From Marsupella aquatica (Eukaryota > Plantae > Marchantiophyta): a stretch of DNA of 64,000 nt. The notes below the pieces were generated by a model, which worked only from the letters and a program-made list of their open reading frames with translations, was not told where the DNA came from and searched no databases. The stretch is from positions 19,854,803 through 19,918,802 of the forward strand of contig OZ316895.1 of NCBI GenBank assembly GCA_973895155.1, written 5' to 3'. Below, piece after piece: positions 19,029-60,551 of this stretch (position 1 is its first letter; every line of letters begins with the position of its first letter). Both the position numbers and the translations under genes were made by a program.

Positions 19029-22996
<3,968 letters not shown>

Positions 22997-29038: not shown

Positions 29039-29428
29039 TCATCCATCTTCACCATCACTGCCGACTGGAAGGGCATCCATGTAATAGTCAATCCCCGTCC
29101 CATCACCGCCAATAACCTTTACTCTTTCAAGAATAAACTTCCCCTCCTTGTACTTTTGAGATTGCTCGTGGGCCACTTCATATTTCCAACCAACAATTTG
29201 TTGGCAGCAGTTGCAAAAAATGTCGGCAACGGTGTGAAGCCCTGTGGTCATCAGTCGATCTTCTTGAGGCCCCACCGACACATTCACCACGGTTTTGAAC
29301 AGGTAGGCCTTACCATGGCGGCAGTGGAACGCCTTGGAAACCAATTCGTCAAGTTTGGCCAAGTGGCTGTGGCAGAATCGGCAACTGTAGATGCGCCCAT
29401 CGAGCTGTATCAAATACAACTTTCCCAT
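29039..29428 (-). CDS. Yippee-like (YPEL) zinc-binding protein, 129 aa, intronless CDS
   Basis: MGKLYLIQLDGRIYSCRFC..HLA....VSKAFHCRHGKAYLF..VVNV..G..EDRLMTTGLHTVADIFCNCC...VGWKYE.AHEQSQKYKEGKFILER. Confidence 0.95.
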   Translation of the reverse strand: MGKLYLIQLDGRIYSCRFCHSHLAKLDELVSKAFHCRHGKAYLFKTVVNVSVGPQEDRLMTTGLHTVADIFCNCCQQIVGWKYEVAHEQSQKYKEGKFILERVKVIGGDGTGIDYYMDALPVGSDGEDG

Positions 29429-37154: not shown

Positions 37155-38285
37155 ACATGCAAAATGAATCTACAACACCGTAACACTAGTACTTATGTAC
37201 AGGATCCATACTAGTATGTGACCAATCTGGAATATGAAAACAGAACATGAACCTGACAACTCCATCTACTGAATCAAATTTGCAACAGACATATTAACAC
37301 ACACATCAGCTTGCAGTCTGGCCCCAGTCCTAGATCACGCATAATTTTGACATTATGCTCTATGTTCCGATTTTGGGCCTCCTCATAAGGATTCACAGAA
37401 TGTGACAACCCCTGCAATCTTCTTTTCACAGGCTGCATTCACCAACTGCACAAATGGGTAAACCATTAGTCTGATTTCATATATAGTCCATACATGTAGT
37501 CCATCTATGGACTTCACACACCTAAAACCTATTCATGAATTGCTTAGGCCTGCCCTTTCTTGCAGATCCCTCTACATCTCTGCCTCGTTTGGGACCAGTA
37601 TTTGGTCCTGGATTTGCTCTTGACGTACAGGCCTTAGCCAATTCGATGTGTAATTTGGCATTGTTTTCCATTGTAGCATGGAAATCAACGTCTGTGTAAT
37701 CACCTAACACCCTTGTGGGCCTGGATTCTTTGTGGAGGATTGTTCTCCATGCTATCCCCTTCTCATTGGGGTGGAAGAAAACCTGCTCCACTTGCTTTGG
37801 AAAAACGTAATCCATTTTCTTGGACACACCCAGTTCTCTATGGAAATTCACCTGCCAAAGACCAGACTCGGAATACCTCATACTGGCAGAGGATTTAGGA
37901 GTCCATAATGGATCTGCCCATTTCCCTTTGAAAAGAATCACCTCTTTCCTCAAGTTGCCGTAATTCAGTACCAAGATATCTGTCAAGGCCCCTACATACT
38001 ATACAGATTCTTCTATGGTTGCACCAAACCTGTCCACTCGCTTCTCAGTGGATGTAGAAGCCATCCCATAATCAAAAGTGCTAAAAGCACCAGAATCAAA
38101 ATCACTCAAACACCCCAAGGATGGAATAGTCCTCCAATGGTGCCCATAGGCTCTGCATGCCCTATACAATCGTGCCTTCAAACTAGGTGGTGTGGAGTAT
38201 GCAGATAGTAATGACCGCTCAGACTCTTTCTCAAAATTATGGGTATTGACTAATGTTTGAAACCATTCCCTGAAAGGTGGCAATT

Positions 38286-41200
38286 TGTGAGATAAGGATG
38301 TTTATGAAGGAAGGGTTAACTAGCCATAAATTTTTGAATTTTTAAGTTTAAGATCTCAAATGAGGCTAAAGAGGGACCTGACGACTACTTTGAAGTGTTA
38401 TGAGACTTTCAAGCCCATCTGAGGTCAACCCGGATTGATATTAGAGAAGGAGGATCGACCTGGAACTTTTTGTTATAAGCCTGGAATGAGATATAAAGCT
38501 TATACCGAGACTCTACTCAATAACAGCTGTCCATTGCCAAAGTTTTTAAAACCATAAGTCAAACACAGGCACGACCACAGTAGAATCTGGATATAAGGAA
38601 GGAGAGTCGATCCGGCCTCTCACACCTCTCAAAGCCGAACTTAGTAGGTTTTGAGTTCCCGAGCGCATTAGGCTGTTAAAGCAGTAGAGTGAGGAGGCTC
38701 TACCCTTTTGGTAGAGGATCTTGGGTCCGGATTATAGGACCAATCTTGAATTTCTTGATGAGAGCCTGGATATGAGGGTACTGACTGATTCGTTGTGAGG
38801 GGAATGCCTACTCCGCCGCTGGAAGTGAAGGCAGGAAGTTTGAGATTCTGATTGTGCATACATCGGTGATGAGAAGGAAGGCCAGATCGATCCGGACATC
38901 CACATTGCAGGCCCGTTTGAGTCTATCTTTGCCCCACGTTCGATGCACCTGAATTCTGATTGACGGGATCTTGATCAACGTTTCTAGAAGCGCTTGTCAG
39001 TTGATCAGAAACACCGTAGCCAGGTCGACCCGGACATTTCTACCATTGGTCGACACCGAAGCGATTGACCATTCTGAAGTCTCAGCATTGTAGAGCTCGC
39101 CGACGAGAAGGCAGGCCATTTATTGGGAATCCATTTTCTGCTTCGATAAGTCCTATGGAGCAAGGGACGGATCCAGCCGGAATTTCCACTTCTCGCGTCT
39201 CTAAGGGGCATTCAACCTCAACATCACCTGCACCTACTCCGGTTAAAGCCCCTGTGAGACGATCGAAGAGAAAGGAGGTCCCCATTGCCATGAAAATTCT
39301 GAGGCCAGCTATTCCGGACAGTGAAGCTGAGAAGGTCAAATTGAGGGAGTCTTTGCTCAGGATGGGCTGTGAGTCTCTGATGGAGCTACCCTAGAGTTAT
39401 CAGAGCGAAGATATGATCAGAGAGATCCGATCCAAGGAGTGTCCGGCTGAGTTTAAGGATACCTCCAAAGACCGACCTGAGCGATGGACTCAGATGATGA
39501 TTGTAGGAGCTTTTGTATTGGAAGATGAAGGAGAAGGTCCAGTGGGAAGAGCTGTCAATCTAATCCTTCCTTACTTCAAAGGAGCCATCAACAGTAAGGA
39601 CGGGTTCAATGTTTCTAAGTGTTTGGATCCTGATCTGAGACAAGTCTTCAGCTTTCTGCTACCCCTGCTGTACCCTGAGAAGCCAAGAAGAGTTACTGTT
39701 GGAGTTGGCTCTACCATTGTTGCTGCTTACAAGGGAGAAAGAAAAGTCAATTGGGCTAAGCTTATCTTTGATTTGATAAGGAAGTTGGTACAGAACCTAT
39801 CCAACAAGAGTCCTACTCCCCTATCCTGCTACCTGGTACATCTATATAGCTTTGAAGGAGTTTTGTTCAAAAAGGAGAAGAAATTACTATTGGCCAAGTA
39901 CAACTTCATCAAGTATGGAGAGACAGATCCAGATATCACCCAGGCCACCTCTGATGACAGTGAGGATGAGGAACCAGCAGAGACAAATCCTCGAAAGACC
40001 CGGTCTGCTGCCCGGAACCTCGACCCGGACTTCGTCGATCCGGCTGAATGTCCGGATGCACCCGGCCATGCCTCCCAAGACACCCTAGCTGATTTCCAGA
40101 TCATCTCAGACACGTTCCAGAAGGTGAAGAGGAAGACCACTGTGATGGAGAAGGTCATCACCGACATTTCACAGAAGCTAGGAGTGAAACCAGGGCAGAT
40201 TCTTGAGAAGATCTTCACCATGAGTGATGCCACAGATAAGAAGAAGTTGGAGAAGGAGAATGAGTTCCTCAAGAAGAAGGTATCTGAACTCAAACAGCAG
40301 TTGGAAAGGAGTAAGAAGAAGAATGAGCTTGAGCATACTCTCCAACTCAGTATCACTCAATCTTTGGATCTGATTGAGCCTTTGACTAAAATAGCTTCTC
40401 TGGATCTTCTTAAGGCCCAAATTTATGATGAGTATTCTGCCAAGAACACCACACCCATCCTTTTCTCCAAGATTAACCATTTAGTGGTAGATGTGAGTAC
40501 CAAGGTGGATGATGCACTTACAGGCCTCTCAAAGACCTGTGAAGCCTTAAGGGAGATGAGTGACTTGACTACTGAGGAGCTATTAGCTGATACTGAGATT
40601 CCTCCCTTTACTACCAGATCTTTCTCTCCTAGTCCTCATGAAGGAGTCTATTCCACTGGCCCCTCATCACCCCTCAACCCTCCTGGTTTCCCCACTCCCA
40701 GTACACACTTCCACTCTCATTCTTACACCTATTCTCATGACCCAAGTGCCCATCAGGAGAACATGGATATTGACCCGTCCATCCCTTTTACCACTGGTCA
40801 GCAGGGAGTTTACCTTCGGCCAGAACCCCTTGCTATGGCCAACCCTGAGGAGGATCCTTCCCAGAAGATAGGACCTGAATAGAACTATATTTAGAGAATT
40901 AGAGCCACATTAGTTTAGACCTAGAAATGGCTATGTAGACTAGTATATGAGTAAGTAGACTCCAACATTTTGTTGATATATCCATTGTAGTCTCTACTCT
41001 ATTTTTGACTAGGATAGTTTACTTTTATTTACATACTTCTTTAGACTTGGGTTTTGAAAAGGCATGTCTTTTCATAATCTCCACTTTTAGTACAAAAGGA
41101 GGAGAACCCAAAGTCAACCGGGAGGAGAGAGATGCATTTGATTTCCCCATTTTGATTTTGGATAAATCTATGTCTTTTCTTCCCTTCTTTTTACCATGGT

Positions 41201-41869
41201 TGAGTAAAAGGAAGAAGTTTAGCAACCCTTGAGTTGTTGTGAAATGTTCAATGAATGCTAGAGTGTGCCTATAATGATATTGGAAGATCAATGAGATTTG
41301 TGACCAATACATTTGAAAGATTCACCAAAGAGGAAATTGACATTTGCACAAACTCAACCAAGCAATCTTAAGGATTGTAGGAGAAGTAAACCAATTCGAG
41401 TATCCTAGTACCGTCTTAAGCAAGACCAGAAAAGTGTCCCGGGTTGATTTACATTGTTGTCTTCTAAATTCAATAGATGGAGAAAAGTTGCTACGAGAAA
41501 TCAAAAAGCATAGAAAATGTTGATTTCTGAATCTTAAATTAGGCCATAATCCTTATTGAAGGAGTGGTGATGGTCAAAAATTCAATTCCCTTGCACTTTG
41601 AAAACTCCTATCTACTCTCTCTCTAGTTTAAATTTTTGTTAATTCTAGTCTTTATTATTGCACTGTGAGTCCTAAGGATTACCCACTTGAGTTTGTGGTT
41701 AAACACTTATGTTAAGAAGGTCATTAAAAATCTTTCCAATCTAAGAATGTTGGTGTAAACTTCTCAAATCGTGTTAATTAGGTCTTTTCGATCTTATCCA
41801 CTCCTAACCAGAACAAAATCGAGTTGTTAAGGAGTAAATAGTCATTTATCTCTTTATCACCTTGCTACA
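38286..41869 (+). mobile_element. 3584-bp solo-LTR-like element (TG...CA, TSD CAATT) carrying a long ORF
   Basis: CAATT at 38281-38285 and 41870-41874. Ends TGTGAGATAAGG...CCTTGCTACA. Excision restores the transposase frame (..PADCQE/LPPFREWF). No gag/pol and no internal direct repeats seen. Confidence 0.85.
39155..40882 (+). pseudogene. LTR-internal ORF (~575 aa) with conserved retroelement-accessory N-terminal domain and coiled coil; one TGG>TAG stop
   Basis: ORFs 39065-39394 and 39413-40882 are in the same frame. The stop at 39392 aligns to W in the paralog (LMELP*S vs LLTLPWS). Coiled coil KKKLEKENEFLKKKVSELKQQLE. Confidence 0.75.
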
Positions 41870-44800
41870 CAATTCTTGGCAGTCAGCGGGAAATTCCACT
41901 GGTTTTCTTTGATTGGCAGGCTTCCTCATCCATTCCTTCCGGAAATCCACTCTTCATTTGGTAACAGTCTCATTGGTAGCATCATATATCTTGCATGGCA
42001 ACAACAACACTGAAGACATTAGTGCATGATCCACCATGAATATACAAACACAATGGGGCAACATAATTTAGGGTTTATGTACCTGTACCATGGAGCCACT
42101 TTCTCTTCATTCTCCAATATATAATGATGCATGGCCATCATTTCAGACCAATCCAAAGTTATCGCCTTTGCAGCCCCTTCCAAAACAATGCCTGCAGTGC
42201 CAGCATCCTCCTCCAACTCCCAGGTTTGTTTTCCCTCTTCCTTTGCATCAATCATGTATTCAAAAAGGAATCCCAAAGACTCATCTAATACATAGCCTTC
42301 AGCCATAGAAGCCTCTGGATGTGCCTTGTTTTGTACATAACCCTTCAATACCTTCAGGTTCCTCTCTATTGGGTACATCCATCTGCCTGTAACTGGGCCA
42401 CACAAGTCTAATTCCTCCACTAGGTGAATCATTAAATGGGTCATGACATCAAAGAAGCTTGGTGGAAAATGGATTTCCAAAATGCAGAGAGTGAATGCAA
42501 CATCCATCATCAAATTCTCATACATTGAAGGGCCCCACACCTTTGTACAGATCTGGCGATAGATATTGCTCACCCCAGCTATGGCCAAGCGAACCCCTTC
42601 ATCAAGTAATCCCATTGTTGCCAGAGGGAGAATCTGTTGCATGAGTTGGTGGAAATCATGTGATTTCAACCCAGAGAGTTTCTTGGATTTTGTAACACAC
42701 TTTGCCAAAGAACTTGAAAAACCAATGGGCCCTTTCAAGGTCAATAAAACCTCCAAGAACCTTGTTCTTTCCTTCTTGCTCAGGCAATATGGGGCTGGGG
42801 GCATCAACAATTTGTCATCGTTACGCTTGGGAGCTGGATTGGGTACAAGCCATAGGTGTTGGCGCACCTGTAAGAGCTTCATGTCTTCTCTCATAGAAAG
42901 AGTGTCCTTGGTCCCAATGATAGTGTGCACAATGTTGTGTGCAAGATTCTTCTCATAGTGCATGGGATCTAGACAATGGTTAATGAGTAGTTTCTGCAAT
43001 GGACACACAATTCAGAAATTAGGGCATTGAATACAACTTTTGGCATCAATGGGCAGTAGTTTGTGCAGTGGACACAATTCAGAAATTAGTGCATTGAATA
43101 CAACAATTACAAAATCTGGGGTACAGGAACTATATGAAGAGAATATATTTCAAAGTCATATGAAGAGATTGCAGAAATTCATTGTAGTAGTATGGAGTCT
43201 TACATTCCAATAGGGCAACTTGTACAGACCAGTAGCCCTCTTCACTCCATGCACCTTTATGGGGCATTTCTCATCCTCAACCTTGGTTCCTCCCTTCTTC
43301 AAATATTCTGTTGTCTCGTCTCCCCACTTCTTTCTATCAGAGCTTGTCATTCTACACGGTGTAGGTCGACTCTCAATTGCACCATCAAAGTATTGTGCAC
43401 TGTCTGGTCTACGAAAAAGATGCCTTGCTGCTAACCATCGACTTGGCATTCTCACCCCTAAAGAGCATGCAACCTTTCTCACAGACAGGGATTCTCTCAT
43501 AATCCAAGCCAAGCTTTCTCAATAGCTGCTTTGCAGCATATAAGTTCTTGGGCAGATTATGCTCTGCAGGCATACCATGCTCCCCCATCAAAGACAACAA
43601 TGCATTCACTCCTTTGTTTGAGAATCCATGGCCATGACAGATGTTCAGCAGAAGCAACATGAATGACACAACATCTATTTTGCTGCCTGGGAACAAAGGT
43701 TGCATTGCTGCATTTAAAGATAACTGTGCAGGAGCAGTCTCCATAGGAGTTTTAGAGGTTTCAAGGGGGTTTACAGGATGGGCACCTCCTTCACTCTCAT
43801 CATCCCCAAGTACAAAATCCAAGTCAAAATGGTCCTGATCATCTAGTTCATGCTCAGGGGATTCTTCATTGGTTCTCAGCAACGTTTCTTCTAGTAGAGC
43901 CCTGATATGTTCTTCGACATCTATAGTTGGATACTCTGGAACATCCACAGTTGGATACTCTGGAACATCTACAAATAAATGTTCTTCAACATCTACAGTT
44001 GGCTGTTGTGCACAGGATGCCTGCTGAAGGTTTGCTACCCTCAATGCCTCAGGGCCATGTTGTGACATGTAGTCAGCACCCCACTCTTCATCAGAAGAGT
44101 CCTATCCCTCTCCCACCCACACTTGACATGCAGGGTACCGACCATGTTTAATAAGGTGCAGTCTAGCAGTATTCCGATTAGTCCTATAATTCCCTTTGCA
44201 GTTCACACAAGGGCAGTACATCTTATGGTCCCCACTCTTGTGGCGAGCCTTCTGTTCTCGAACCCACAAAGCATCGTCACGATGTTGTACTCTAGCTGGA
44301 TGGAAGAGTGGCAACTTTGGAGTTCTACCCACACCTAACGTATTCTGTGGCAATTGTGCCATGCTAGCTTGATTGAAATTGTATTCAAACTATGATTTTC
44401 AAACTAAATCAGTGTGACATGCATACAAAATTGGGCCTACCGTCACAATTGTACAACCGATGCCAACCACAGTCCAATTGCTCAAACCCATAGAGCCCAG
44501 TTTCTCAAATCCACTGTAGTGGGGCACCTTCTCCTTCTTGCATACAAATAGAGCATCACATATAGTGTCATCAGAATGATACTATGAACGTAAATCTTTG
44601 TGCCTTCATCATTTCCAGTATTTGTTTGCCTATTAGGAATGTGAGCAGACAGGTTTGGAATAAGTAATGTTTGTGACACCAGTGACAAATTTACAAGTGA
44701 AGTTTAGACATCAACAATGACCCGAGTCACACTCAAAGCACATGCATGAAAATCAGAATCTTACCCTGGAAAAGATAGTAAAGTTGATTTCTCAAAATTA

Positions 44801-44962
44801 ATTGCCTCAATCCGCAATGCATTGTCGTAGAGTGTGTATACATGAGGAGTTCATCAAACTGCATATAAATAGTCCACATGTTTTAGCACTCTGAAAATTG
44901 TTGAAGTCCACGTGAAACCATCAAAAAACTCTATCTCAAGTTTGTGTTCCATCCAGCCTCAA

Positions 44963-45622
44963 TCAAATCCAAGATATGTGGCTCCTAGCAGGAGTGCCTA
45001 GTGTAGGGTCAATGTCATGGTCAGGACAGTAAACACATCCCCTCTTGGGCTGCCCATGCGCTGAGTGATCCCAAATTGTCCGATCATGGGCAAATCCCCT
45101 CTGCTGGATAAATAGCAGGCAGTCCTTGTGCCATGCCTTAGGACACCTCATGCACTGAACCAAAAAGCCATTAGCCCCATCATTGGGCCCTTGTCCACAA
45201 GTAAGACAAATATGGAGTCCACATGATGCTGTGCCAGGAACCAAACACTGCTGACAGTAAAACCGGGCACATAGAGGGTCTGGACATTTTCTTACCTCTT
45301 CACCCATTTTTCCAGACACATGACACTTAAAGCAAGAATGTTCCTCATTCTTGCAATCGACACAAAGCCATTCTCCAACATGGCCATCAGCCAGGGATAT
45401 AGTTGGGCATAGCCATTGCTGACCCAAAGGACAGGAAACATTCTTATGGAAATGTCGGTGGCAAGGCCCATCACAAAAAATGAGATCCCCTCCCTCATCA
45501 CAAATCGCACATACATGTGGACTATTCTGGTTAATCTCAATGTCTGAGTATAAGGACAATTGAGGTGCTTGAGAGGATTCACCTCTACAACGATTTGTGG
45601 CCTTCTGCTTATTGCGAGCCAT
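44963..45622 (-). CDS. EDM2-like composite PHD-finger protein (~219 aa) inside the CACTA element
   Basis: VCAICDEGGDLIFCDGPCHRHFH..C..C..WLCVDCKNEEHSCFKC..VRKCPDPLCARFYCQQC..CGLHICLTC..VQCMRCPKAWHKDCL..RTIWD..VYCPDHDIDPTLGTPARSHISW. This parallels, from recall, the EDM2 PHD region (CAICDNGG..CEGSCLRSFH..HQCFIC..CPLHKC..CRRCPKSYHRKCL..RAWD..YC.EHEID..L.TP.RDH). Open, intronless frame. Confidence 0.85.
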   Translation of the reverse strand: MARNKQKATNRCRGESSQAPQLSLYSDIEINQNSPHVCAICDEGGDLIFCDGPCHRHFHKNVSCPLGQQWLCPTISLADGHVGEWLCVDCKNEEHSCFKCHVSGKMGEEVRKCPDPLCARFYCQQCLVPGTASCGLHICLTCGQGPNDGANGFLVQCMRCPKAWHKDCLLFIQQRGFAHDRTIWDHSAHGQPKRGCVYCPDHDIDPTLGTPARSHISWI

Positions 45623-47744
45623 GGTCCTGCACACTCAGACCCTACATCAGATTATGAAACAAGAAGGAATAACAAGGTGCAGCATGACACACAAGAATGA
45701 GGGTGCAACATAAAATATGACATGTAACCACAAGGGTGCAGCATAAACCAATGCTTTATGGATGGCAAAGCATTTAGGACTGAGCAGCGCAAATAACCTT
45801 GGCCTATGATTGGAAGCAATCACAATATTGCAACCTGTATGCCTTCGCTTGCTGTACAGCAGTGCTCACTCACCCTGCCTTTTTAAAATCTGTAAGGGCA
45901 ACACAGAACAAATAGCAATTGAGTTTCAGCAAAGCATTCATTTGGCTCTCAAGTTTTAAAATGGACAGAGCAAACACAACAATGTGCACAACAAAGCATA
46001 GAGAGCAACAAAACTCCAGCAAACTTGGGACTCAGGCAAGAGATACAAATTTTAGCAGCAAAATCAAATCAAGATTTGGACCTGTAAGTTCAACATGCAA
46101 TGCTCAGTCACCCTGCCCTTTTTTAAATCTGTAAAAATCAAGTTTTATTGCGTGCCTTCTACATCTTAAGTTGCTGCACACATCTGTTACAGAACCATAA
46201 GTTGCTGTACTCTCAACAAGCTGCTGGTCCACCCACTTTTTCAAAAGCTGCACCGTACTCTATCTTTGTGTAGTCGTGGCATTACCGGGCTGCTGTCAGA
46301 GACCCTTACAAAGAATTTAAAATTGACCAAGCTGATTTTAGTTTAGTTTCGTCCAGTTTGCAGACCAAAGGAAATCATGTGTGAACGTCAAACAGTTAGC
46401 TGTAAATTACCATAGTTGAAGAGCAAAGCTTGTACAAAAGCCACTGAGGAATTCTCTGAGGTGGCACAGTAATTGGCAAACCACACACGAAACTCTGAAA
46501 CTTTTTGGCGACAGAATTCTATAGAGTCGCTGCTGGAATCCAGTGAGGATTCACCATACATGCTTGCACTTCTCTTCAGTAAAAAAAAAGTTGCTGAAAG
46601 TGCCAACGGCAGGGAGACAAAAAGTGAAGAAATGAGAAGTCTTTGGCACATTGATAACCAGTGTGGTCCTCGGACTTCAGATGCAAGAAAGGAAATGGAA
46701 GAGACAAAAAAATCTGTGAAAGAAAGTAGAGCGCAACAGAGATCCAACATACGCAGATTTGGACTGTGGGAACAGATTTTTGACGCAGATTTTCCAGCAA
46801 GGGTTAGCAAGTAGTCTAGTACTTACTAGTACTTACATTGTTCGATCGCAGCTCACTCATTCAAAGGAAAACAAATCCTCAAATTAATGCTCTACATTGC
46901 CTTTTTCCTCATGCATGGATAGAGCCAATGTCTGTTGAGAATCTTTTACAATTGTTTTGAAGCAAAGTACTTGCTAGACGGCCTGGTCGCTCATACAGAG
47001 CAAAACAATGAATGAACTTACCCCACGACAGAGCACTTAGCTACTCACTATGACATCAATATCACCATTCTTATTTTGTCAAAGATAAGGAAATTATCTT
47101 AGGGCTTGAATTTTTAAGTAGAAGAGGAAGTGCACTTTAGGGTGTTCGAAAATTCTCCGATGTGTTTGTTAGTAAAGTCCACAGTACCACAAATTGCCAC
47201 AACTTATGGTTGCCATTGAGCGAACATTACTAGTTGGATGGATTGTGATAATGGTGATGGCCCCACCCTCATAGCTGCCGATTGCTACGTTCAGGCATTG
47301 ATCAAAACGGAATATCAATCAAACGTATATGAAACCCTCAGTCTACGGTTAGCCGGCACTTTCATCCAAAGAGTGTGCTTTTCACCATTCAAATCAAATT
47401 CCGCAAACTATAACAGACAAGCACAGTTGGCAATTGATAGACCAAGCATAGTGCCCTGAAACAGACTACAAATCAGCAATAGAACTCACTCTGCATTCCT
47501 CCCAACAGCCCTAGATTATTGTGAGTAGAATGGAACGGGATTTTTATTGGTGTTCAACATAAGAAATCTGTCTCTAGATGTGGACACTCTAGAGGCTCTA
47601 GAAGAGAAAATTCAGTGTCACAGAATGAAACGCGGTGGCAATAGCATGCAGCAGAACAAATCTCTTTGTGGGAAATGAGAAGCTTGACTCCCAATTAAAG
47701 TCCCAAAAAGACAAGAAGCTCACTCTACGAATGGAGATGGAGGG

Positions 47745-48135
47745 GAACCCGTCCTTCGCTCGCAGCTTGTCCTCTGCTCGCAGCTCAGCCCAAGCTCGTC
47801 CTCCGCTCGCAGCTCAGCCTCCGCTCGTCCTCCGCTCGCAGCTCAGCCTCCGCTCGTCCTCCGCTTGCAGCCCGAGCTCGTCCTCCGCTCTCCGCTCGTC
47901 CTCCGCTCGCAGCCCGAGCTCGTCCTCCGCTCTCCGCTCGTCCTCCGCTCTCCGCTCGTCCTCCGCTCTCTGCTCGTCCTCTGCTTGCAGCTCGTCCTCT
48001 GCTTGCAGCTCGTCCTCTACTTGCAGCTCGTCCTCTGCTTGCAGCTCAGCCCTCCGCTCATCCTCTGCTCGCAGCCCGAGCTCGTCCTCCGCTCTCTGCT
48101 CGTCCTCTGCTTGCAACACGTCCTCCGCTCCTCAC
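47745..48135. repeat. GC-rich minisatellite of ~18-nt units (CTCGTCCTCCGCTC...)
   Basis: About 20 degenerate units. They generate the SSSA / AEDE low-complexity ORFs in several frames. Confidence 0.9.
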
Positions 48136-49819
48136 CCGCAACTTGGAGGAAATGTAAAGAAGCTATTGCAATGCTAATCGATCGAAGCTCCTGGAAACAT
48201 GTAGCGCCCAAGTCCTACTGAGGTGCTCCGCCGAACGCGCGCAACACACTCAAAAACAATGGCAGCCTGAATGGCTTTGGGTCGGAGCTCCTCCTCTAAA
48301 GCTTGCAAATGGTCAATAGTTTAGGGTCCAGGTCCAAGGCTTCACTGAAACAATGCCTCGCCCAACGCTTGCCTGTTGTTACGCAGCGCAGTGATAAAGT
48401 CCCAAGAGCACTTAAACTTTGTGCAACCCTAAAGGTGAGAGCACTCCGCGCGGAAACTGATATGTGCACACCAAGAAACCATGACATTCAACGTAGCAGA
48501 TCGATGGTTTTTGGGAAAAAGGGCCCTCGTGCGAATGGTGAACACTTGTGCTGGAAACATGTCGCCCCCTAAACCCGGTCATGTTTACCGTTGGATGGGC
48601 TTAAAAGACACACACAATAGGGTAATTCACTTACCCTAAAACTCCTAAAAATGTCCTGACCCCCATAAGGCCACAATACCCTAAAACCCTAAATGACTCT
48701 ACACCCCCATCTAAACTTTAACTCAAGGGAAGCCCACCTCCCACCCATAGGCAGCCCCGGGCCAAATAAGGTAATTTCTGGTGATTTCTTATAGGAGTCC
48801 TCCCATATCATACCACAATGACATTATATAAGGTCCTGATAATTAAAATCTTGAGAACCCCCATATTCCAAAATGTTTATGCCCCACTAGTGCATGGAGA
48901 ATAGTATGTAGAGTGTCATGCAACCCTCCTTAAATATTGTACCCCTAAATGACCCAATGTATGACTTCAGTCTAAAACAACCACTAGTTGCAGTCATTAG
49001 ATCTCAATTTTTGTCATTGCCAAAGACTCACCATTTTGTTCATGTCACGATCAACTATTACCCCTACTCTAAAATCGGCCTGGCAATAATCACACATTGA
49101 TCAAAACGTGTTAATAATTTGTGTGAACTCTCTTATTTAAGGAAAATAGTGAAGTTTATTATAGTATTGAATGATATGGTATACCATATATGTACTATTT
49201 TGATTAACACTTATGGGGCCCCAAAAAATTTGGGTCCAAGGAATTACACATTCAGATGTGATAATATGTGATATACTATGTCATTTTTTAATTCATGACA
49301 ACCCCAATGACTGCACAAGGGACCACTTAAATGACCAAATGTCCAATAATTTGTCTTATATGACACTTAATATGACCATTTCAATGACACTATTTGTAGT
49401 CAAAATTGGTTTTTATGAGACAACATTTGAATTATATGACATGCAAAATGACGGCGCCAATGACCCTCACTTCAGTCATTGGCATTAATGAATACCCTTA
49501 TCCAAAATGACCCAATGAAATTATGCTCCTCTTATAGTGCCCAAAGTTCCATAATGCCTTCCCTAAACGCAAAAACATGTCTGAACATTTATTATGCTGC
49601 AACTAGTGGTGGAATAGAAAGTATTGTATCCCCGACCTCATGGAACGGTGGTGAGCTCTATGTGGGACCCGTGGCACTCATTCTTACATTCAGCCCCTAG
49701 CCCCAAACTTGTCATTTGTGCTTCTGTTTAATGACTGCACACAAGGGACCACACAAATGACCACAAGTCCAGTCCTTAGACTTATATGACATCCCATATG
49801 ACAGTTTTAATGACCCTTC

Positions 49820-52800
49820 TGTAATAGCTGTCTAAATTAGAAACTTAGAAATAATGAAAACTTTAAAAAAAATTGTAGTTAGAAATAGATTAAACATAGC
49901 CAATTAATCTACTTTTAGATATGTAAGGTTAAGACTTAGTTAGGCAGATTAATGGATAATACCCTGAGTAATTAGGTAGGGGTGAGACGAGTCAGAAGAA
50001 ACTACTATCGATGTCCTCAAAGCGCGAAAGGAAGATTGGTGCTGCCACGTTTGACTGTGGGCGCAAAGAGCGTTTTGGCGCAACAGCGCAACGGCGCTTT
50101 GGAGCGAAAGCGCAACAGCGTATCGGCGGAAAAGCGCAACGGCGTTTTGGAGCCAAGGCGCAAGGGCGCAAAGGCGCAATAAAGCGAAAGGGCAACGGCG
50201 GATCACTTGGCATTGCTCTCTCTCCGGATCGATAGTTGGTGACAACGCCTTGTTTCTTGTTACTATGGCAGACGAAGGGGGAGAGATGACCGCGAGAGGA
50301 GTTCCTCTACCTAAGGCCGTCCCTGTGACATACCCTACGATGAAAAGAAGCTTGCACGTTTTGAAGGAAGCACTAGCGGTCATGCACCTGAGTAAATTAC
50401 TCACTCTGCCTTGGTCTGCAACTTCATTGAGTTTTCTGAAGGATTTCAGTGATGGGGCACAAATTGAAGTCGGTATGGTGGGAACTGCTCGGGCAAATCC
50501 AAAATTCTGGACTCTGCAATTTGTTGCTGATGCTTTTGACTGTCCCGCCGAAGGCGACAGCTTACACTCACGACAAGGGGAGATTGCGAGGCCTTATTTT
50601 TCTGGAACTCGAAACGTTCGCCATGGATGGAAAATGGATCAGTGCACCGATTATACTCTCAAAATCATTTTAGAGTTTTTGATTCCAATTCTCCATCCCA
50701 TCCGTCCACATATGATACCTGTGTCACTTGCCAATACTATTGTGGCAAGTTGGAAGGGAGTTGCTCAGATAAATTGGGCCTTGTTGCTAAGACAGGTTAT
50801 TTTATCTCAAGTAAAGAAGGTGAAAATGGACGAGTTCACTACTCTCCCTTCTTATCTTTGCCAATTGTACTTTCATGGAAATTGCTTACTTTCAGGCGAA
50901 CAAGAGGAGCGGATCAGACTGCTTGATGAATTTGATCTTAGTGAGTCAGGAAACGAGGATACTGAAGGAGAAGATGCTGATGAAGTCCAACCGGAGGTTC
51001 CCCCACCTATCTGTTCAGAGGTTACCCCTCTTACCCATAGAGAACCACTTGTGGAACCCAGAAGCACCTCTTCACCAATTCCTGATAACCCACTATCCCC
51101 TTTCGAAGATCTCAATCAGGATAGAAGACTTTACACCCCCCTCAATTCCAATCTTGATGAGTATACATTCAAGCCAGAACCAGTAGGAACGTCCCCACCT
51201 TTTGTACCTGTAGTTGACATATCTATCCCTAATACTCTTCGATCACCCACAGTCCCAACTCAGAATTTATCTGTAGACAGCTTGACCCCTTCTATGAGAT
51301 CCCGTAAGAGACCCTTCATGTTCAGCAAACCAACGGTTGATGAACTGAGAGTAGAATCTAATCAGCAAATTATTGATAAGTTAAGCAACTTATTGATCTG
51401 TGAACCTGAGGAGATAGTTGACTCTGTTGAGAGGTTAAGAGCAGCCTCTGTAACTCTGCCTGAACCTAGTAGTCCCGACTCTCCATACTCTCCAACCCAA
51501 GGACCGACTCAGTTCTATCCCGAAGTGATGGAGCTATTTCGACCCACCTCCAATATTAGGGTTACAAATATTGCTGAAGCTGAACCAATGGAGGAAAATG
51601 ATGCATCACCCAGGTTAGAGCTCCAACAGACACTATTTGCTTCCCCAGGTCACTTTGCTGAACACTATTCTACTCTTGTTAATAAAATGGCTGACATGCT
51701 AGAGTGTGATGAGAGACACTTAATTGATGTCTTGGATGATCTTTTGTGTAAGACATCAGCTTTACTTACCCGAGATCATCATCAAGAATATTGTGAGGAT
51801 TTAGTCCACAGGCTTACACAAATTTTCGGATGCAACCGGAAACAAGTCTATTATGCCGTCCGTTATCATACCTCAGCCTCTGGCTCTCCCATTTACTATT
51901 CTTCCCCTTCTTCCAGTCATTCACCCACCTCTCCTTACAGTCCTTCGAATCAACCAGACCAGCTCTATCCTAGTTTTCCAGAGCCTGAGATCACCCCTAC
52001 AGGTGAACATCTTGCCACTTCTTATCCTGACACCCTTCCACCAGGTCAAGATCAATCCTGCCAGGTCAATTTCATCCCTACACTGCATATTAACCCTAAG
52101 ACCCCTCAGGAGAATATTACACAATTTGCTGAGTTTGTTAGAGTTTCAGACCTTAGAACTCCTCCCATTTTAGAGTTTTGGCAATACTATCATAAGAAGA
52201 GAGTTGAATGTCTCTATATCCTGAAGCTTCATCTGAAGGATGTCACCCGCCTAGAGATAGCAGAGATGGATGAGATCTGGACAGAGGCTAAATATTTTCG
52301 TCCTATTCTTGCTGTCATAATCCTGGTTGGACACATTGTATTGGAGAATGGAGATCTGGCCCTGACATACTTCGGGAACTTACCTGCCTATGTCTTGGAA
52401 TTCATCATCAACTTTTTGAGACAAACCAACAAACGATATCAGGTCGACCATGGTGTTCTACCAGAGAAACCTTTTATTGTTCAACAATTTATCCACCAGT
52501 TGCTGAGAGTCAGAGAATTTGGAACAACATCACTTCCCAATGGTTGACTGATTACACCTTGAAATGGCGAGAACTGTTACCTCGTGTCACCCCACTTCTG
52601 TCACTTGCCAAGGACTCTGACACCTTCATCAACAAGTTTCCACGCAACTACCATACTACTTGTTGTAGTTATGACTTGGTCGGCATCTATATGCAAGCTA
52701 GCAAGGTGAACACTATGTTTCACAGTAGAATACTTCCCATTCTAAATGCTGAACGACAAATCAGGTCTCTTCCATTTGCTCAACATGATACACAAGCTAT

Positions 52801-54335
52801 GGATTTCCTTCGAGAGGTGATTCAAACCGAGACATTCAGGAGAGTTCAACAACTGGACCAGTCAGCACTACTTCAGGAGGATTGATCTACTCCATCCTTT
52901 GAGTCAGGATTAGTCAATCTCCATCATTTTTGTTAAATAGTTATCATAGTTAAAAAAGTCTCATACTTTTTTAGGAAATAGCCCTTATGTAGTAGAATCT
53001 CCCCTGAAAGTATCGGCTTAAACCGACATGTCGTTTAGAAGATATGACATTTTTAGTTTTGCTTAAGCGTAAAAGCGCAAAGGCGCAACGACGCTTCCGA
53101 CACTTAGAAAAATTTCTGGAAAAGTGTATTTTATATCTGACAGCACTTTTCATCAATTTTATTAAGGCACTTAGACACCTCAGAAAAGTCTAAAATTTTT
53201 CCAGCATGAAGCATGTATATAAATCTTCTATCTAGTAAAGTTTCACCCCATTTTAAATTTTATGTTAGAAATTATAATTCCGATAAACTCACTATTTATT
53301 AGTTTTACCACAAAAGTGCAAAAAACACTTTTACTCCAGTTTACACTAGGGATAACTTTTAGTTAGTTTTTCATTCCAACAACATTCTAGTGAACCTTGA
53401 GTACTCTTATAGCATATTTTCATACTTTTTACTTTAGTTTATGACCCTTAAGATGTGAAAGGGCATGTCCTTTCATTATCTCTTTTCCCCTTTAGTTTCT
53501 GCTAGCCTATATGTAGTAGAGTTTTTGCCACTTTTAGTGTGAAGAAATTTCATGAGCGCTCAGTTGCAAGATTACAACTTTGTTACCTCCATTTGTAGCA
53601 AGCACTCCATTGCATATGAGTACTTAATACAAAGGAATTCTTCCCCTTCAAGTCTAAATGAATGAGAAGTTTGGACCTTTGAAGTAAAATTATTGTGAGT
53701 GTTAAATCTTTTGAGTATGTGGAAATAGATTACTTGTTGGTGATGTTTCACATATTCCTTAGTTCTTGATGCATAGTTTTTGACGTGACATTGCTTGTGC
53801 ACGGGATACAAAGATTGTTACTTATCAATTACTTATGGCTTCAAATTTGATTATGATGGTGTCTCTTATTTGTGACACAAAGTACCGATTGGATACAGAA
53901 GTGATTGATTACTAGTCTCCACTCAGTACCTTGGAAGGAAAAGTTGAGACATGTTGACGGCATTTTAGTAATCATCCTAGTACCGTAATCCTTTCCAGAA
54001 ATGTTCTTGCGGATATACCACCTAAATCATATCAAATGAAGTTATGTTGAGGAGTCACCTTGGTTGTTTCCTAACTCCCTCACCATACCTCAAGGTTTTC
54101 ATTGTGTTTTATTAATTGTTTCCATTTATTAATTTTATTTACAATGTCAAGCAGACATTTAAAACTATGCCTTGCTGAGCAACCATAGTAAAAGGCTCCA
54201 CCTTTGTGTTTTTGTTACCTTATTCATTCATAAGTGCTAAATCATAGAAAATCATTCCTTTCATGTTCTTCCATGGGAACGAATACCGAGTTTTGGATCT
54301 TAAATGTTCATTTATGTCCCAAGTGTGATACTACA
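49820..54335 (+). mobile_element. 4516-bp solo-LTR-like element (TG...CA, TSD CCTTC) carrying a long ORF
   Basis: CCTTC at 49815-49819 and 54336-54340. Ends TGTAATA...TACTACA. Its removal restores a normal 580-bp unit. No gag/pol. Confidence 0.87.
50265..52547 (+). CDS. LTR-internal ORF (760 aa), paralog of the 39155-40882 protein; may continue to 52885 across a frameshift
   Basis: Open frame from MADEGGEM. Shared blocks with the other ORF: WT, PYF.G, FL.P.L.P..P, TIVA..KG, NWA.L, YL..LY. Confidence 0.75.
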   Translation: MADEGGEMTARGVPLPKAVPVTYPTMKRSLHVLKEALAVMHLSKLLTLPWSATSLSFLKDFSDGAQIEVGMVGTARANPKFWTLQFVADAFDCPAEGDSLHSRQGEIARPYFSGTRNVRHGWKMDQCTDYTLKIILEFLIPILHPIRPHMIPVSLANTIVASWKGVAQINWALLLRQVILSQVKKVKMDEFTTLPSYLCQLYFHGNCLLSGEQEERIRLLDEFDLSESGNEDTEGEDADEVQPEVPPPICSEVTPLTHREPLVEPRSTSSPIPDNPLSPFEDLNQDRRLYTPLNSNLDEYTFKPEPVGTSPPFVPVVDISIPNTLRSPTVPTQNLSVDSLTPSMRSRKRPFMFSKPTVDELRVESNQQIIDKLSNLLICEPEEIVDSVERLRAASVTLPEPSSPDSPYSPTQGPTQFYPEVMELFRPTSNIRVTNIAEAEPMEENDASPRLELQQTLFASPGHFAEHYSTLVNKMADMLECDERHLIDVLDDLLCKTSALLTRDHHQEYCEDLVHRLTQIFGCNRKQVYYAVRYHTSASGSPIYYSSPSSSHSPTSPYSPSNQPDQLYPSFPEPEITPTGEHLATSYPDTLPPGQDQSCQVNFIPTLHINPKTPQENITQFAEFVRVSDLRTPPILEFWQYYHKKRVECLYILKLHLKDVTRLEIAEMDEIWTEAKYFRPILAVIILVGHIVLENGDLALTYFGNLPAYVLEFIINFLRQTNKRYQVDHGVLPEKPFIVQQFIHQLLRVREFGTTSLPNG

Positions 54336-57300
54336 CCTTCTTGTAGTCATTGGCATTTATGACGGTCCGTTGGTCATATATGACCCAATGAAGGCCCTAG
54401 TACCTCCAAAGAGAGCCCCCAATAGATTCCTTGCAAGGTTGGAATATTCCTATTTCCTAAACCCGCACCCACACTATATAGGGAAGAACGACTCCCCTGC
54501 CCATTCCATTGGTGCAGCACCACCTCTTGGAGAACCACAAAACAACTTTTATTTGCCTTTTGGATGTGATGGTGTGCATGCATGGTAACACTTTTGGCAA
54601 ATCACTCCAAAGTCGTACAACTTGGGAGTGATTTCCCCAAAGGTGCATCATGCCTTAAGTAAATGCAAAAACATGTGTCCAAAGTGTTTATGTCGCAACT
54701 AGTGGTTGGACAATGATGAGTATAGTGTCCCGCACCTAGTGGAGGGGTTCTCACCTCTATGTAGGGCCACATGGCACTCTAGGGCCCACCTCCAGTCCCT
54801 AGCCCCAAACTGGTCATTTGTGCTTTTCCTTAATGACTGCACAAGGGACCCCTCAAATGACCCGGTCACAACTGCAGTCATTAGACTTATATGACTGCCC
54901 ATATGACAGTTTTAATGACCCTACTTGTAGTCACTGGCATTTATGACAGTCCATTGCTCATATATGACCCAATGAAGGCCCTAGTACTTCCAAAGAGAGC
55001 CCACTTTAGATTCCTTGCAAGGTTGGAATATTCCTCTTCCCTAAACCCGCACCCACACCATACAGGGAAGCACGACTCCCCTGCCCATTCCATTGGTGCA
55101 GCACTACCTCTTGGAGAACCACAAAATAACTTTTATTTGCCTTTGGATGTGATGGTATGCATCCATGGTGACACTTTTGGTAAATCACTCCAAAGTCGTA
55201 TGACTTGGAAGTGATTTCCCCAAAGGTGCATCGTGTCTTAAGTAAACACAAAAACATGTGTCCAAAGTGTTTATGTTGCAACTAGTGGTTGGACAATGAT
55301 GAGTATAGTGTCCCGTACCTAGTGGAGGGGTTCTCACCTCTATGTGGGGCCCCATGGCACTCTAGGGCCCACCTCCAGCCCCTACCCCCAAAATGGTCAT
55401 TTGTGCTTTTCCTTAATGACTGCATGAGGGACCCCTCAAATGAGAATAATTCAGGTCATTCCGCTTATATGACATCCAATGTGACCATTTTAATGACCTT
55501 TCTTGTAGTAATTGGCATTTATGACAGGCAATTACTCACATATGACCCAATAAAGGCCCTAGTACCTCCAAAGAGAGCCAGCTTTAGATTCCTTGCAAGG
55601 TTGGAATATTCCTATACCCTAAACCCGCACCCACACCATGCAGAGAAGCACGACTTCCCTGCCCATTCCATTGGTGCAGCACTACCTCTTGGAGAACCAA
55701 AAAATATGTTTTATTTGCCTTTGGATGTGATGGTATAATCCATGGTTGAACTTTTGGCAAATCACTCCAAAGTCGTACGACTTGGGAGTGATTTCCCCAA
55801 AGGTGCATCATGCCTCAAGTAAACACAAAAACACGTGTCCAAAGTGTTTATGTTGCAACTAGTGGTTGGACAATGATGAGTATAGTGTCCCGCACCAAGT
55901 GGAGGGGTTCTCACCTCTATGTGGGGCCCCATGGCACTCTAGGGCCCACCTCCAGCCCCTAGCCCCAAAATGGTCATTTGTGCTTTTCCTTAATGACTGC
56001 ATGAGGGACCCCTAAACTGACCACATATCCAGTCATTTGACTGATATGACTCTCCATATGATATTTTTAATGACCCTACTTTTAGTCATTGGCATTTATG
56101 ATGGGCCATTGCTCACATATGACCCAATAAAGGCCCTAGTACCTCCAAAGAGAGCCAGCTTTAGATTCCTTGCAAGGTTGGAATATTCCTATACCCTAAT
56201 CCCGCACCCACACCATGCAGAGAAGCACAACTTCCCTGCCCATTCCATTGGTGCAGCACTACCTCTTGGAGAACCACAAAATATGTTTTATTTGCCTTTG
56301 GATGCGATGGTATAATCCATGGTTGAACTTTTGGCAAATCACTTCAAAGTCGTATGACTTGGGAGTGATTTCCCCAAAGGTGCATCATGCCTCAAGTAAA
56401 CGCAAAAACACGTGTCCAAAGTGTTTATGTCACAACTAGTGGTTGGACAATGATGAGTATAGTGTCCCGCACCCAGTGGAGGGGTTCTCACCTCTATGTG
56501 GGGCCCCATGGCACTCTAGGGCCCACCTCAAGCCCCTAGCCCCAAACTGGTCATTTGTGCTTTTCCTTTTAATGACTACATAAGGGACCCCTCAAATGAC
56601 CACAAATCCAGTCATTAGACTGATATGACTCTCCATATGACAGTTTTAATGACCCTACTTTTAGTCATTGGCATTTATGATGGGCCATTGCTCACATATG
56701 ACCCAATAAAGGCCCTAGTACCTCCAAAGAGAGCCAGCTTTAGATTCCTTGCAAGGTTGGAATATTCCTATACCCTAATCCCGCACCCACACCATACTGA
56801 GAAGCACGACTCCCCTGCCCATTCCATTGGTGCAGCACTACCTCTTGGAGAACCAAAAAACAACTTTTATTTGCCTTTGGATGTGATGGTATGCATGCAT
56901 GGTGACACTTTATGCAAATCACTCCAAAGGTGCATCATGCCTCAAGTATACGCAAAAACATGTGTCCAAAGTGTTTATGTTGCAACTAGTGGTTGGACAA
57001 TGATGAGTATAGTGTCCCGCACCTAGTGGAGGGGTTCTCACCTCTATGTGGGGCCCCATGGCACTCTAGGGCCCACCTCAAGCCCCTAGCCCCAAACTGG
57101 TTATTTGTGCTTGTGTTTAATGATTGCATGAGGGACCACACAAATGACCACAAGTCCAGTCACTTGACTTATATGACAGTCCATATGACAAATTTAATGA
57201 CCCTACTTGTAGTCATTGGTATTTGTGATGCAAATGTTTTTAGAAATGACCCAATAAAGATTACACTAGCTCCTTGAATGCCCCATCACTATTTATTTGC

Positions 57301-57707
57301 AAATTAAAATATTCCCCATCCAAACACCGGCACAAACATGACACAATTACAACAAAGGATGACAACCTTCCATTGGTATTGCCCTACTTCTTGGAGAGAC
57401 AAAAAGGTTTCATTTGCCTTTGGATACGGTAGTATGCGCGCATCTATATATGGTGACACTTCTGGAAAATCACTCCAAAGGTGTATGACTTGGGAGTGAT
57501 TTCCCCAAAGCTAGGTGCATCATGCCTAAAGTAAATGCAAGACATGTGTTGAAATTACTAATGTGCCAACCAGTGGGAGGACAATGATGAGTATTGTGTC
57601 CCGCACTTAGTGGAAGGGTTATCAACTATATCAATGACTCTACAATTATGACCGGTGTCTAGAATGACTATTGAGTATTTTAATCTTCATATCTCTTGGG
57701 TTCTTTA

Positions 57708-58480
57708 ATGACTCTATAAGTAGTCATTTATGCAATAAGTCCATAATGATTGTATGTTATTGTAAACATTGATATATCATGAGTTTTAGATTGACCCTAT
57801 ATTTAGTCATTTATGCAACAAGTCCATAATGACAGTATGTTGTTGTAAACACCGATATATCCTAATTTCAAGATTGACCCTAGAGTTAGTCATTTATGAG
57901 AGAAGTCCATAATGACGGTATGTTCTTGTAAACACTGATATGTCCTAATTTCAAGATTGACCCTAGAGTTAGTCATTTATGAGAGAAGTCCATAATGATG
58001 GTATGTTCTTGTAAACACTGATATGTCCTAATTTCAAGATTGACCCTAGAGTTAGTCATTTATGAGAGAAGTCCATAATGACGGTATGTTCTTGTAAACA
58101 CTGATATGTCCTAATTTCAAGATTGACCCTAGAGTTAGTCATTTATGAGAGAAGTCCATAATGACGGTATGTTCTTGTAAACACTGATATGTCCTAATTT
58201 CAAGATTGACCCTAGAGTTAGTCATTTATGAGAGAAGTCCATAATGACGGTATGTTCTTGTAAACACTGATATGTCCTAATTTCAAGATTGACCCTAGAG
58301 TTAGTCATTTATGAGAGAAGTCCATAATGACGGTATGTTCTTGTAAACACTGATATGTTCTAATTTCAAGATTGACCCTAGAGTTAGTCATTTATGGGAG
58401 AAGTCCATAATGACAATATGTTGTTGTAAACACTGATATATTCTCATTTTCAGATTGACCCTATATTTTGTCATTTAACA
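57708..58480. repeat. 83-bp tandem array (~9 copies) in the CACTA subterminal region
   Basis: TTGACCCTA at 57791, 57874, 57957, 58040, 58123, 58206, 58289, 58372, 58455. Central copies are nearly identical. Confidence 0.95.
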
Positions 58481-60551
58481 CCGTTGGTTCAAATGACGGT
58501 AATACATTTTTTGTCATTTATCACCGTTGTCCAAAATGACCCAAATAGATTTTTGGTCATTTCAATCATTGTCCAGAGTGACTATAATGTTGTTAAACAT
58601 TGATTTATCATTGTTGTTATTAATTGCGTCATTTAAGACATGTGTCTAAATTGACCATTTAGGGAAATTGGGACATTTTGGTCCCATCAGTCATTACAAA
58701 CATTATACAAAATGACGCAAAAGTTAACATTTTGTCATTTCATTCCATTGGTCATTGTGGACAGTCATTCCCTTGTCATTCTTTTTGTGTCATTAAAATT
58801 TTTGGTCATTTATTCATCTCCGTCATTGGGTGATTGGTCATAAAGGGCCCTGTTTTCTTCTAGTGGCGCGGCCTCCTCATTTGCCTTTCTCTCTTTTAGA
58901 ACCCTCTCTTATCAGAGATATACAGTTAGAGGCCTTAATGATGCTCCCCAACATTTGTGAATATGTCGTTCACTCCCAGATTAATTTTCTTGAGTGGCGC
59001 GGGAAATGGAGGTATTCAATCTCTGTGAGCCTGGAGTGTGAAGTGCCAATATACTGTCATCTCTCTCTAAGTGCACATTGTCAAAAAAGAAGTATCTGGT
59101 GTGCACTAAACATCTCTGTGCACTAAACATCTCTGTGCACTCTTATCACTTATCAATAAGAGTGTCTGGTTTACATCTCTTCATAAAATGTGCAATGTCC
59201 TTAGTCAGTGAACAGTCTCAAGACTCCTACCCTTAATTGTGCATCCCTGCCTCAAATGCCGGCCCCTACCCCGCAAGTGCAATTTTAACAGTACTACAAA
59301 GTGCCATGCACTTATCCAGACATTTTTTGGCAAGTTAAATATGATGTGTGATACACATGTCTAACTTAAAGGGAGTTGAAAGTAAGATTATTCTCACTTT
59401 TTGGATTGTTGAACCTGTAGACTATTGCACACCACAATGTTCCATGATTGCTCACTCGCTAGTAGTGATCAGAAATGATTGGTTAATGAAGTCAATGTAG
59501 CTCAATAGAACCTAGCTATTGATCATCTCCACTGCACAACTGCCTACTTTGTTATTGGCCCCACCTTCTACTGTACATAAAATACTTTCCAAGGGGCCTC
59601 CATTTGGCTTCAAATTGCAGAAACTGCAATTGACCCTTCTTGGTGGCAAAGTCTTGGGACTCATCATCTTCAGTAAAGGAGATCTCCCTCCAATGGCAAA
59701 TTCTCTAGTGATTCCCAACTACCAACTGATAGCAACATCCCACAACTCCTCTCACTAATCTGCCCTCTTGCTGTAAAGTTTGTTATTTCAATCTGACTGG
59801 CTGAATCAAATCTTTATTTATGCTGGGAGTGCTCCTTTGCTTGGGTGTTTGCTAAAGAAATGTGGCATTGGATTCATGCCATTCTAACCCCCAAAATAAC
59901 CTTCCGACTGACAATTTCAGAATTTTGCACAATCAATTCCTGGGATTGTTTGCCACACAGATGGTGGACCAGTACATTGTGGTCAGACAAATTGAGAGAT
60001 TTTAGTCTTTGAAAAGTGTGTGGTTGAATCCTAATGCTGTAATTTTTCATCCAGAAAAATTTAATCAACTTAGGCATAAGCAATTGGAGTAAAGATTTGA
60101 GCAGAATTTAAGACTTCCTTAAATATTGCAGCGTAGATAGCCCAGGTTGACATACAAAATGCAACCTCAAGGCAACAAAGTCATCTATTGAAAACTCAAC
60201 ATTACTTTGGAGTGTCCCACGTACCTTGCGGGCCTCTAAACATCTTGGAAACAATTGTCCTCCACCCCCAGGTACTATGGCAACTTTGTTGTACACTTAA
60301 TGCTACCAGCCTGAGTGCATTGAGGTGAGTACATTCAACTAAGTGTGTTGCATTCAAAGACTTACCCTCCCCCCATCCCATTTTTCATTTGCAAGCCCAA
60401 CTTCAACTACACCCCAAAGTCACAGTCTAGAGGTTTCACTCTAGCTCATAGGCCTTGAAGCAAGCCTTGAAGAGTAGCTTTCAATCATGATTGTATAGTA
60501 AGATGTCAATTTGTTCTCCATGATGAAGATTCTCCTAAGACACATGCACTA

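Follow-up and report, generated by a model that had tools for sequence, protein, structure and literature searches.

Why would two units that end like long terminal repeats (LTRs), and contain no recognisable polymerase, each carry a protein gene? The question is raised by a 64,000-nucleotide stretch of the liverwort Marsupella aquatica (assembly GCA_973895155.1, contig OZ316895.1, positions 19,854,803 to 19,918,802 of the forward strand), referred to here as the window. A preliminary description of the window had reported two such units, E1 and E2, with TG…CA ends, target-site duplications (TSDs), no gag/pol or paired repeats, and homologous open reading frames (ORFs). The analysis suggests that both are solo LTRs, that the two families they come from belong to one non-chromovirus lineage of Ty3/gypsy elements in bryophytes, and that the gene within the LTR encodes a sequence-specific DNA-binding protein which would shield the element from silencing. 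Taken whole, this explanation seems on balance probable. Its parts differ in strength: judged from the sequences of the units and their relatives, an accessory gene inside a 3.5-4.5-kb LTR is very likely, while an anti-silencing role for its protein, argued by analogy, is tentative and given slightly less than even chances.

Both sets of ends and TSDs were confirmed. The edges read CAATT-TGTGAG…GCTACA-CAATT in E1 and CCTTC-TGTAAT…ACTACA-CCTTC in E2. TGT…ACA pairs with a 5-bp TSD arise by chance 404 times in the window and are weak evidence alone, so the boundaries of each unit were tested separately. For E1, the empty site is seen in all four runs, as contigs in which 38280 is followed directly by 41870, the two sides overlapping by five letters. 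E1 interrupts a CACTA transposase gene, with DUF4218 on one side and, weakly, DUF4216 on the other (Pfam), and once E1 is omitted the reading frame of the transposase carries on uninterrupted. At the right end, contigs in 4/4 runs lose their match at 41869, and 3-6 contigs per run then enter unlike DNA (consensus agreement 0.46-0.53); these are many insertion sites sharing one end. E2 sits in a tandem array of about 578 bp per unit, and the array unit is continuous across the site: the flanks plus one TSD align at 72-85% over about 650 bp to five neighbouring array stretches. Both units are discrete insertions, each having ends of LTR type, a 5-bp TSD and an empty site. The absence of paired repeats and of gag/pol also held: blastn found no internal repeat in E1 or E2, and nothing in the window matched the pol of a relative described below (L002) at E<0.01.

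Two observations concern the insertion sites themselves. The array broken by E2 occupies 49300-58600 and at 57606-58569 passes gradually into one with 83-bp units. An ORF with NSD-like PHD fingers (44963-45634, minus strand) lies about 2 kb upstream of the CACTA transposase and may be carried by the CACTA element that E1 interrupts.

The 3' non-coding parts of E1 and E2 share three collinear blocks, two of which were shuffle-tested and are significant. The first, beginning at 41055 in E1 and 53456 in E2, scores 57 and is matched by 0/200 shuffles. The second, ATCCTAGTACCGT, was found at 41402 and 53974 as originally described. The third is the similar 3'-terminal block of the preliminary description: the final 80 nt of the two units score 46, where shuffled sequence averages 15.8, and are matched by 1/1000 shuffles, whereas the likeness of the first 80 nt is not above chance (416/1000 shuffles as good). 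The terminal block likely represents R/U5 or integrase attachment signals.

The genes of the two units are homologous, at 28% protein identity over 221 aa (E 2e-27). Proteins of 600-900 aa had been proposed for both. This size fits E2, where a 760-aa frame is open and homology to an intact 808-aa relative, P0065, runs on in another frame to 52888, giving about 870 aa in total; it does not fit E1, which has 575 codons and a stop at codon 80. Nearly all other copies compared lack the E1 stop, and the E2 copy is frameshifted near 52.5 kb relative to P0065. Neither copy is an intact gene, which is a point against the explanation and does not bear out the earlier idea that every solo LTR leaves a complete expression cassette. 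The C-terminal domain of E2, about 270 aa long from about 52086 (P0065 530-808), is conserved at 32-39%; it has no Pfam match, and a search with it among proteins of 444-1414 aa returned only its own cluster. A possible splice acceptor, a pyrimidine tract followed by CAG, was seen by eye 5' of the ORF in the relatives L001 and L002, and a regular expression for splice acceptors gave candidates in E2 and L003 only. No RNA run was listed as containing E1, which is not evidence on its expression.

The position of the gene relative to the LTR was read from relatives. Of 47 metagenome pattern matches, three loci were confirmed (L001, L002 and L003, from two families), while none was confirmed among 31 matches in viral contigs or 20 in prokaryote genomes. 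L002 carries Ty3/gypsy reverse transcriptase (RT), RNase H and integrase (INT) by Pfam, with a stop at 2487. After the integrase comes GAGGAC…AAAAAGGGGTAA, a purine tract that is the usual gypsy-type polypurine tract (PPT), then TGTGGG at 2525, and then the ORF from 3097, 572 bp on. L001 is of the same family and has the same PPT-TG-ORF order. In L003, of another family, the TG start is 22/30 identical to the L002 type and the ORF begins 701 bp inside, and the 26 nt before the TG start hold no purine tract and are 6/26 identical. The ORFs of E1 and E2 begin 869 and 445 bp from their TG starts, offsets that agree with the layout of L002 and L003. Because the plus strand is primed at the PPT, that tract defines where both LTRs begin on the left, which puts the ORF of these relatives in U3 and gives each element two copies of it. 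Because the TG start follows a PPT in L002 and non-PPT DNA in L003, each unit is most probably a solo LTR whose U3 contains the gene, and LTR-LTR recombination would have removed gag-pol and left this one gene-bearing LTR. This agrees with the first of two earlier suggestions, a lineage with a gene inside the LTR; given such relatives, the second, a separate non-autonomous unit mobilised by integrase, is not needed.

The LTR start has a short inverted repeat, TGTGGGA…TCCCACA, in L001/L002 and L003 (27-56), which E1 and E2 lack. In L002, two diverged copies of a repeat of about 250 bp lie in the non-coding DNA downstream of the ORF (5400-5830).

A related alternative is that E1 and E2 are autonomous-looking units that are not LTRs and move as DNA through a borrowed integrase or a Ginger-type transposase. 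The TG…CA ends and 5-bp TSDs would suit such units, and no primer-binding site (PBS) was seen behind E1. The terminal inverted repeats, however, are weak (5 and 7 of 12 positions in the two units), a homologous gene is physically joined to gypsy pol through a PPT, and E1 has the same CCGG signature, described below, as the pol-bearing L002. This alternative seems very improbable, marginally more so than the one that follows.

Several further observations weigh against placing the gene in the LTR. None of the three loci is a complete element with two LTRs, and L002 ends 1.1 kb after the ORF. In the DNA behind the right end of E1 the loose ends are mixed and no PBS is readable, the tRNA-Asp/Asn type of Athila included. 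The left end 3' of a PPT was seen in L001 and L002 only, outside the families of E1 and E2, and in the domain tree L002 and L003 fall in a different branch from E1 and E2, so the latter are linked to pol indirectly. A further purine run, followed by TGT, stands at 5361-5380 in L002, 370 bp beyond the ORF, and its counterpart in E1, followed by TG, is at 41120-41134, about 240 bp past the ORF stop. The available text of PMC2829016 describes an extra PPT before an internal ORF in Athila4 and Calypso. These second runs, the Athila precedent and the lack of an intact element among the recovered loci would suit a reading in which the ORF is a usual extra ORF of the internal region, on its 3' side and flanked by two PPTs as in Athila, with E1 and E2 as internally deleted or chimeric copies. 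But a deleted element retains both of its LTRs, whereas no internal repeat occurs in either unit; the same deletion would be required in two unrelated families; in L003 the post-integrase TG start forms a free left end and the ORF follows it; and among the 15 of 20 joints listed none indicates a common junction inside E1, the strongest being the empty site. An internal ORF is thus judged very unlikely, and a gene within the LTR is preferred. Under this preferred placement the second purine run may be a relic of an Athila-like extra-PPT state, and it hints at a route for the gene into the LTR: if the extra ORF of an Athila-like ancestor had a PPT on either side, a switch to the upstream PPT would shift the ORF into U3.

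The gene encodes a member of a large protein family, defined by a domain of about 200 aa, with 1,138 representatives at 50% identity in a profile search, 173 of them below 1e-30. Of ten clusters examined, three are named to species, all from the liverwort Calypogeia fissa and among the closest to E1. In E1-type proteins a domain of about 215 aa is followed by an acidic linker, then long helices and finally a variable tail; E2-type proteins keep the N-terminal domain and add the C-terminal domain of about 270 aa. A midpoint-rooted domain tree of 44 sequences (40 database proteins chosen for domain coverage, plus E1, E2, L002 and L003) places E1 and E2 with Calypogeia proteins, apart from L002/L003 (100/99 split). 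Lysine or arginine occurs in more than 60% of rows at eleven alignment columns. Between L001 and L002 the ratio of replacement to silent change (pN/pS) is 0.35, on a small sample of 16 replacement and 15 silent changes. An env-like membrane role is disfavoured for E1-type proteins: the five tested have no membrane segment (best 19-residue hydropathy below 1.0). Two E2-type proteins are borderline, at 1.7-1.8.

Models of the conserved domain are confident, with a predicted local distance difference test score (pLDDT) of 96.4 for E2 and 92-98 over residues 1-220 for E1. When the E2 domain was compared with 48,161 chains, the sole match at Z of at least 5 was VANC21 bound to DNA (9lnk_A; Z 7.3, next 4.1), with a root-mean-square deviation (rmsd) of 3.9 and 191/208 residues aligned. 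The same chain was the sole match listed for the E1 domain (Z 7.7, rmsd 3.9, 197 aligned). The matched region of VANC21 covers residues of about 296-559. The C-terminal helices of E1 match generic helical bundles, at Z up to 8.2. A profile search of PDB sequences gave coiled-coil matches only, and the VANC21 chain was absent among the best 60 of 107 rows. In embedding space the neighbours are ATHILA PF03078 clusters (0.87) and Transposase_32 clusters (0.90-0.91). From the models, the N-terminal domain is probably DNA-binding, with a fold of the VANC or plant mobile domain (PMD) type. The suggested kinship with Athila ORF1, Transposase_32 and plant mobile domains is supported by embeddings and fold only, and not by Pfam scores.

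If the domain binds DNA, the elements might hold its sites, and two candidate motifs were found. CCGG accounts for 17/69 CpGs in E1, 62/241 in the LTR part of L002, 30/127 in L002 pol and 24/81 in L003, compared with 42/962 in the rest of the window (E1 excess p 5e-8), 4/88 in the CACTA host of E1 and 3/98 in E2. E1 is the richest 3.6-kb stretch of the window in CCGG (17 sites; best non-overlapping stretch 8). E2 instead has GCGCAA, with 10 observed and 0.5 expected. The top 6-mer z is 5.4 in the CACTA host, used as control, 10.2 in E1, 13.6 in E2 and 17.3 in L002. In the proposed mechanism, the protein would consist, in order, of a VANC/MAIN-type DNA-binding domain, the acidic linker and, in E1-type proteins, a coiled coil for oligomerisation. 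It would bind a short CG-containing motif enriched in its own family, CCGG(A) for E1, L002 and L003 and GCGCAA for E2, and once bound would lower methylation locally, as VANC proteins do on VANDAL elements. VANC targets are likewise short motifs which their own elements amplify in arrays and which differ between families, according to the available part of PMC5735166.

Other points weigh against this reading of the protein. The fold matches are middling, and by the tool's own note Z values of 7.3 and 7.7 are typical of best hits with unknown meaning. The alignments behind the E1 and E2 models overlap substantially, and sequence identity to VANC21 is 8-13%. Foldseek, proposed earlier as a check of the N-terminal domain, found nothing at E<=0.001 in the PDB with either model or among viral structures with the E2 model. 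The embedding feature counts of 136-163 are under the 170 typical of same-family hits. No Pfam family scores above cut-off on the family domain: PF20167 is touched by 2/84 members (best E 0.005), and PF10536 and PF03078 have no match in the 84 members among the 25 families listed. As for the motifs, 8/10 GCGCAA copies in E2 stand in one array and may reflect few events; the CCGG sites of E1 are mainly within the ORF, while VANC21 sites are non-coding; and L002 and L003 come from other genomes, whose CCGG background may differ. In moss, CCG sites are methylated differently, as the available part of PMC6453930 reports, so the CCGG excess could be mutational.

One alternative keeps the gene inside the LTR but gives its protein a different function, for example in particle or nuclear transport, in directing integration or in plain activation of transcription, with the motif excess produced by mutation bias or slippage. 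The middling fold match and the special CCG methylation of moss favour it, as does the prediction, in the available text of PMC13547354, that Athila-domain proteins form coiled-coil pentamers with many host contacts. On the other side, the motif excess tracks the family inside a single genome (CACTA, E2 and E1 as above), and a mutational cause is not easily squared with opposite results for two elements 8 kb apart. The VANC21 match also extends over the entire domain and leads the runner-up by 3.2 Z, and membrane segments are lacking in the five E1-type proteins and borderline in the two E2-type ones. A different job is considered unlikely, though well ahead of the other two alternatives in plausibility, and the DNA-binding, silencing-shielding protein remains the preferred explanation.

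Known systems resemble this one in parts. The sag gene of mouse mammary tumour virus (MMTV) and lentiviral nef lie in U3 of retroviral LTRs. They likewise are protein genes within an LTR, duplicated per provirus and kept in solos, but here the host element is a plant retrotransposon with an unrelated protein, no envelope and no known immune role. Like Athila, L002 has the order RT-RNase H-INT with no Pfam hit to an added archaeal-type RNase H or chromodomain, in its own pol and in three polyproteins 74-78% identical to it; the likeness also extends to 5-bp TSDs in E1/E2 (common to most lineages), a sense extra ORF after pol, a globular domain with a coiled coil, and the embedding neighbours. 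The nearest proteins to L002 pol include ones from Riccia and Calypogeia, at 50-59% identity; for angiosperm proteins the identity is 36-52%. The lineage is called Athila-like here, without being filed as Athila. Unlike Athila, whose ORF is placed between pol and the 3' LTR in the available text of PMC7264820 and PMC6317226, the ORF here stands behind the PPT, within TSD-bounded units, and is retained in solos; its domain also has no Pfam match to ATHILA ORF-1 or Transposase_32. VANC21 and VANC6 of VANDAL elements share the predicted fold, a conserved domain with a variable tail, and family-specific short motifs in the element. They differ in belonging to a Mutator-like DNA transposon of dicots, while this gene is linked to gypsy pol in a bryophyte, and the low identity and CG-containing candidate motifs also set it apart. 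The available part of PMC13547354 describes VANC and MAIN as structural homologues and predicts coiled-coil oligomers for VANC and the Athila domain, and that of PMC5418596 reports PMDs carried by Gypsy elements. Moss Tat-like elements and Phygy are also bryophyte non-chromoviruses without added RNase H, but are reported without extra ORFs in the text available from PMC4408406 and PMC6317226, and Phygy has 4-bp NCGN TSDs where 5 bp are seen here. The ORF0 of the element in PMC3485330 lies upstream of gag-pol, outside the LTR, in the part available. Literature searches of partial coverage turned up no description of a plant or bryophyte LTR that contains an ORF, nor a publication of the crystal structure of VANC21.

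Table 1. Features of E1, E2 and the surrounding window (window coordinates).
Feature	Position	Strand	Details
E1, TG…CA unit, 3,584 bp, candidate solo LTR	38286..41869	+	TSD CAATT at 38281-38285 and 41870-41874
E1 accessory gene, 575 codons	39155..40882	+	one internal stop at codon 80
E1 conserved globular domain, about 215 aa, predicted VANC21-like fold	39278..39930	+	structure model, fold comparison
E1 long helices/coiled coil and helical hairpin, then Pro/Ser-rich tail	40076..40591	+	common to E1-type relatives
E1 CCGG sites, 17 (5 upstream, 10 in ORF, 2 downstream)	38433..41450	.	candidate motif CCGG(A)
E2, TG…CA unit, 4,516 bp, candidate solo LTR	49820..54335	+	TSD CCTTC at 49815-49819 and 54336-54340
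E2 short-repeat array, 8 GCGCAA, just 5' of ORF	50061..50195	+	candidate motif; 2 more at 53075-53092
E2 accessory gene, 760-aa open frame	50265..52547	+	N-terminal domain 50307-50930, predicted VANC21-like fold
Remainder of E2 C-terminal domain, other frame	52499..52888	+	tblastn with 808-aa relative P0065
Non-coding block common to both units	E1 41055..41081, E2 53456-53482	+	24/27 identical
ATCCTAGTACCGT common to both units	E1 41402..41414, E2 53974-53986	+	sequence match
Terminal block common to both units	E1 41811..41849, E2 about 54277-54315	+	80-nt end comparison
Rubisco accumulation factor 1	25609-27258	+	host gene
Yippee	29039-29551	-	host gene
Helicase fragment	21995-22399	+	host gene

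Elsewhere in the window, Pfam identifies host genes for Rubisco accumulation factor 1 and a Yippee-family protein and a C-terminal helicase fragment (Table 1), as well as decayed Ty1/copia RT fragments (RVT_2) at 15792-17331 on the plus strand. To the eye, an ORF at 10496-11104 (plus strand) resembles part of a gypsy polyprotein of an unrelated kind; it has no Pfam match. Other arrays have units of 35 bp and 19 bp (61388-62318) and of 18 bp (47750-48142).

Extra ORFs of plant Ty3/gypsy elements are placed in the internal region in the available text of PMC7264820, PMC6317226 and PMC4408406, and the first and last of these call their function unknown. A concrete test of that function is offered by this genome, where each of two families combines a domain variant of its own with a candidate motif of its own. 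Annotation confined to the internal region of LTR elements can miss an LTR-borne gene, and a gene in the LTR would account for many "hypothetical proteins" in liverwort annotations. It also recasts the solo LTR, otherwise a spent promoter, as a possible source of protein. The more than 1,100 representatives would form a large natural set of DNA-binding variants if they bind in a sequence-specific way. A wider and rather doubtful proposal is that a widespread bryophyte Ty3/gypsy lineage took a VANC-like, self-recognising anti-silencing gene and its motifs into the LTR, that solos keep the family unsilenced in trans, and that the env-like/Transposase_32 ORFs of Athila share the fold and the role. 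If so, those Athila ORFs would be DNA-binding anti-silencing factors, each solo LTR would be a standalone gene and target unit that acts after the loss of gag-pol, and the host's main route for removing retrotransposons would leave the counter-defence behind.

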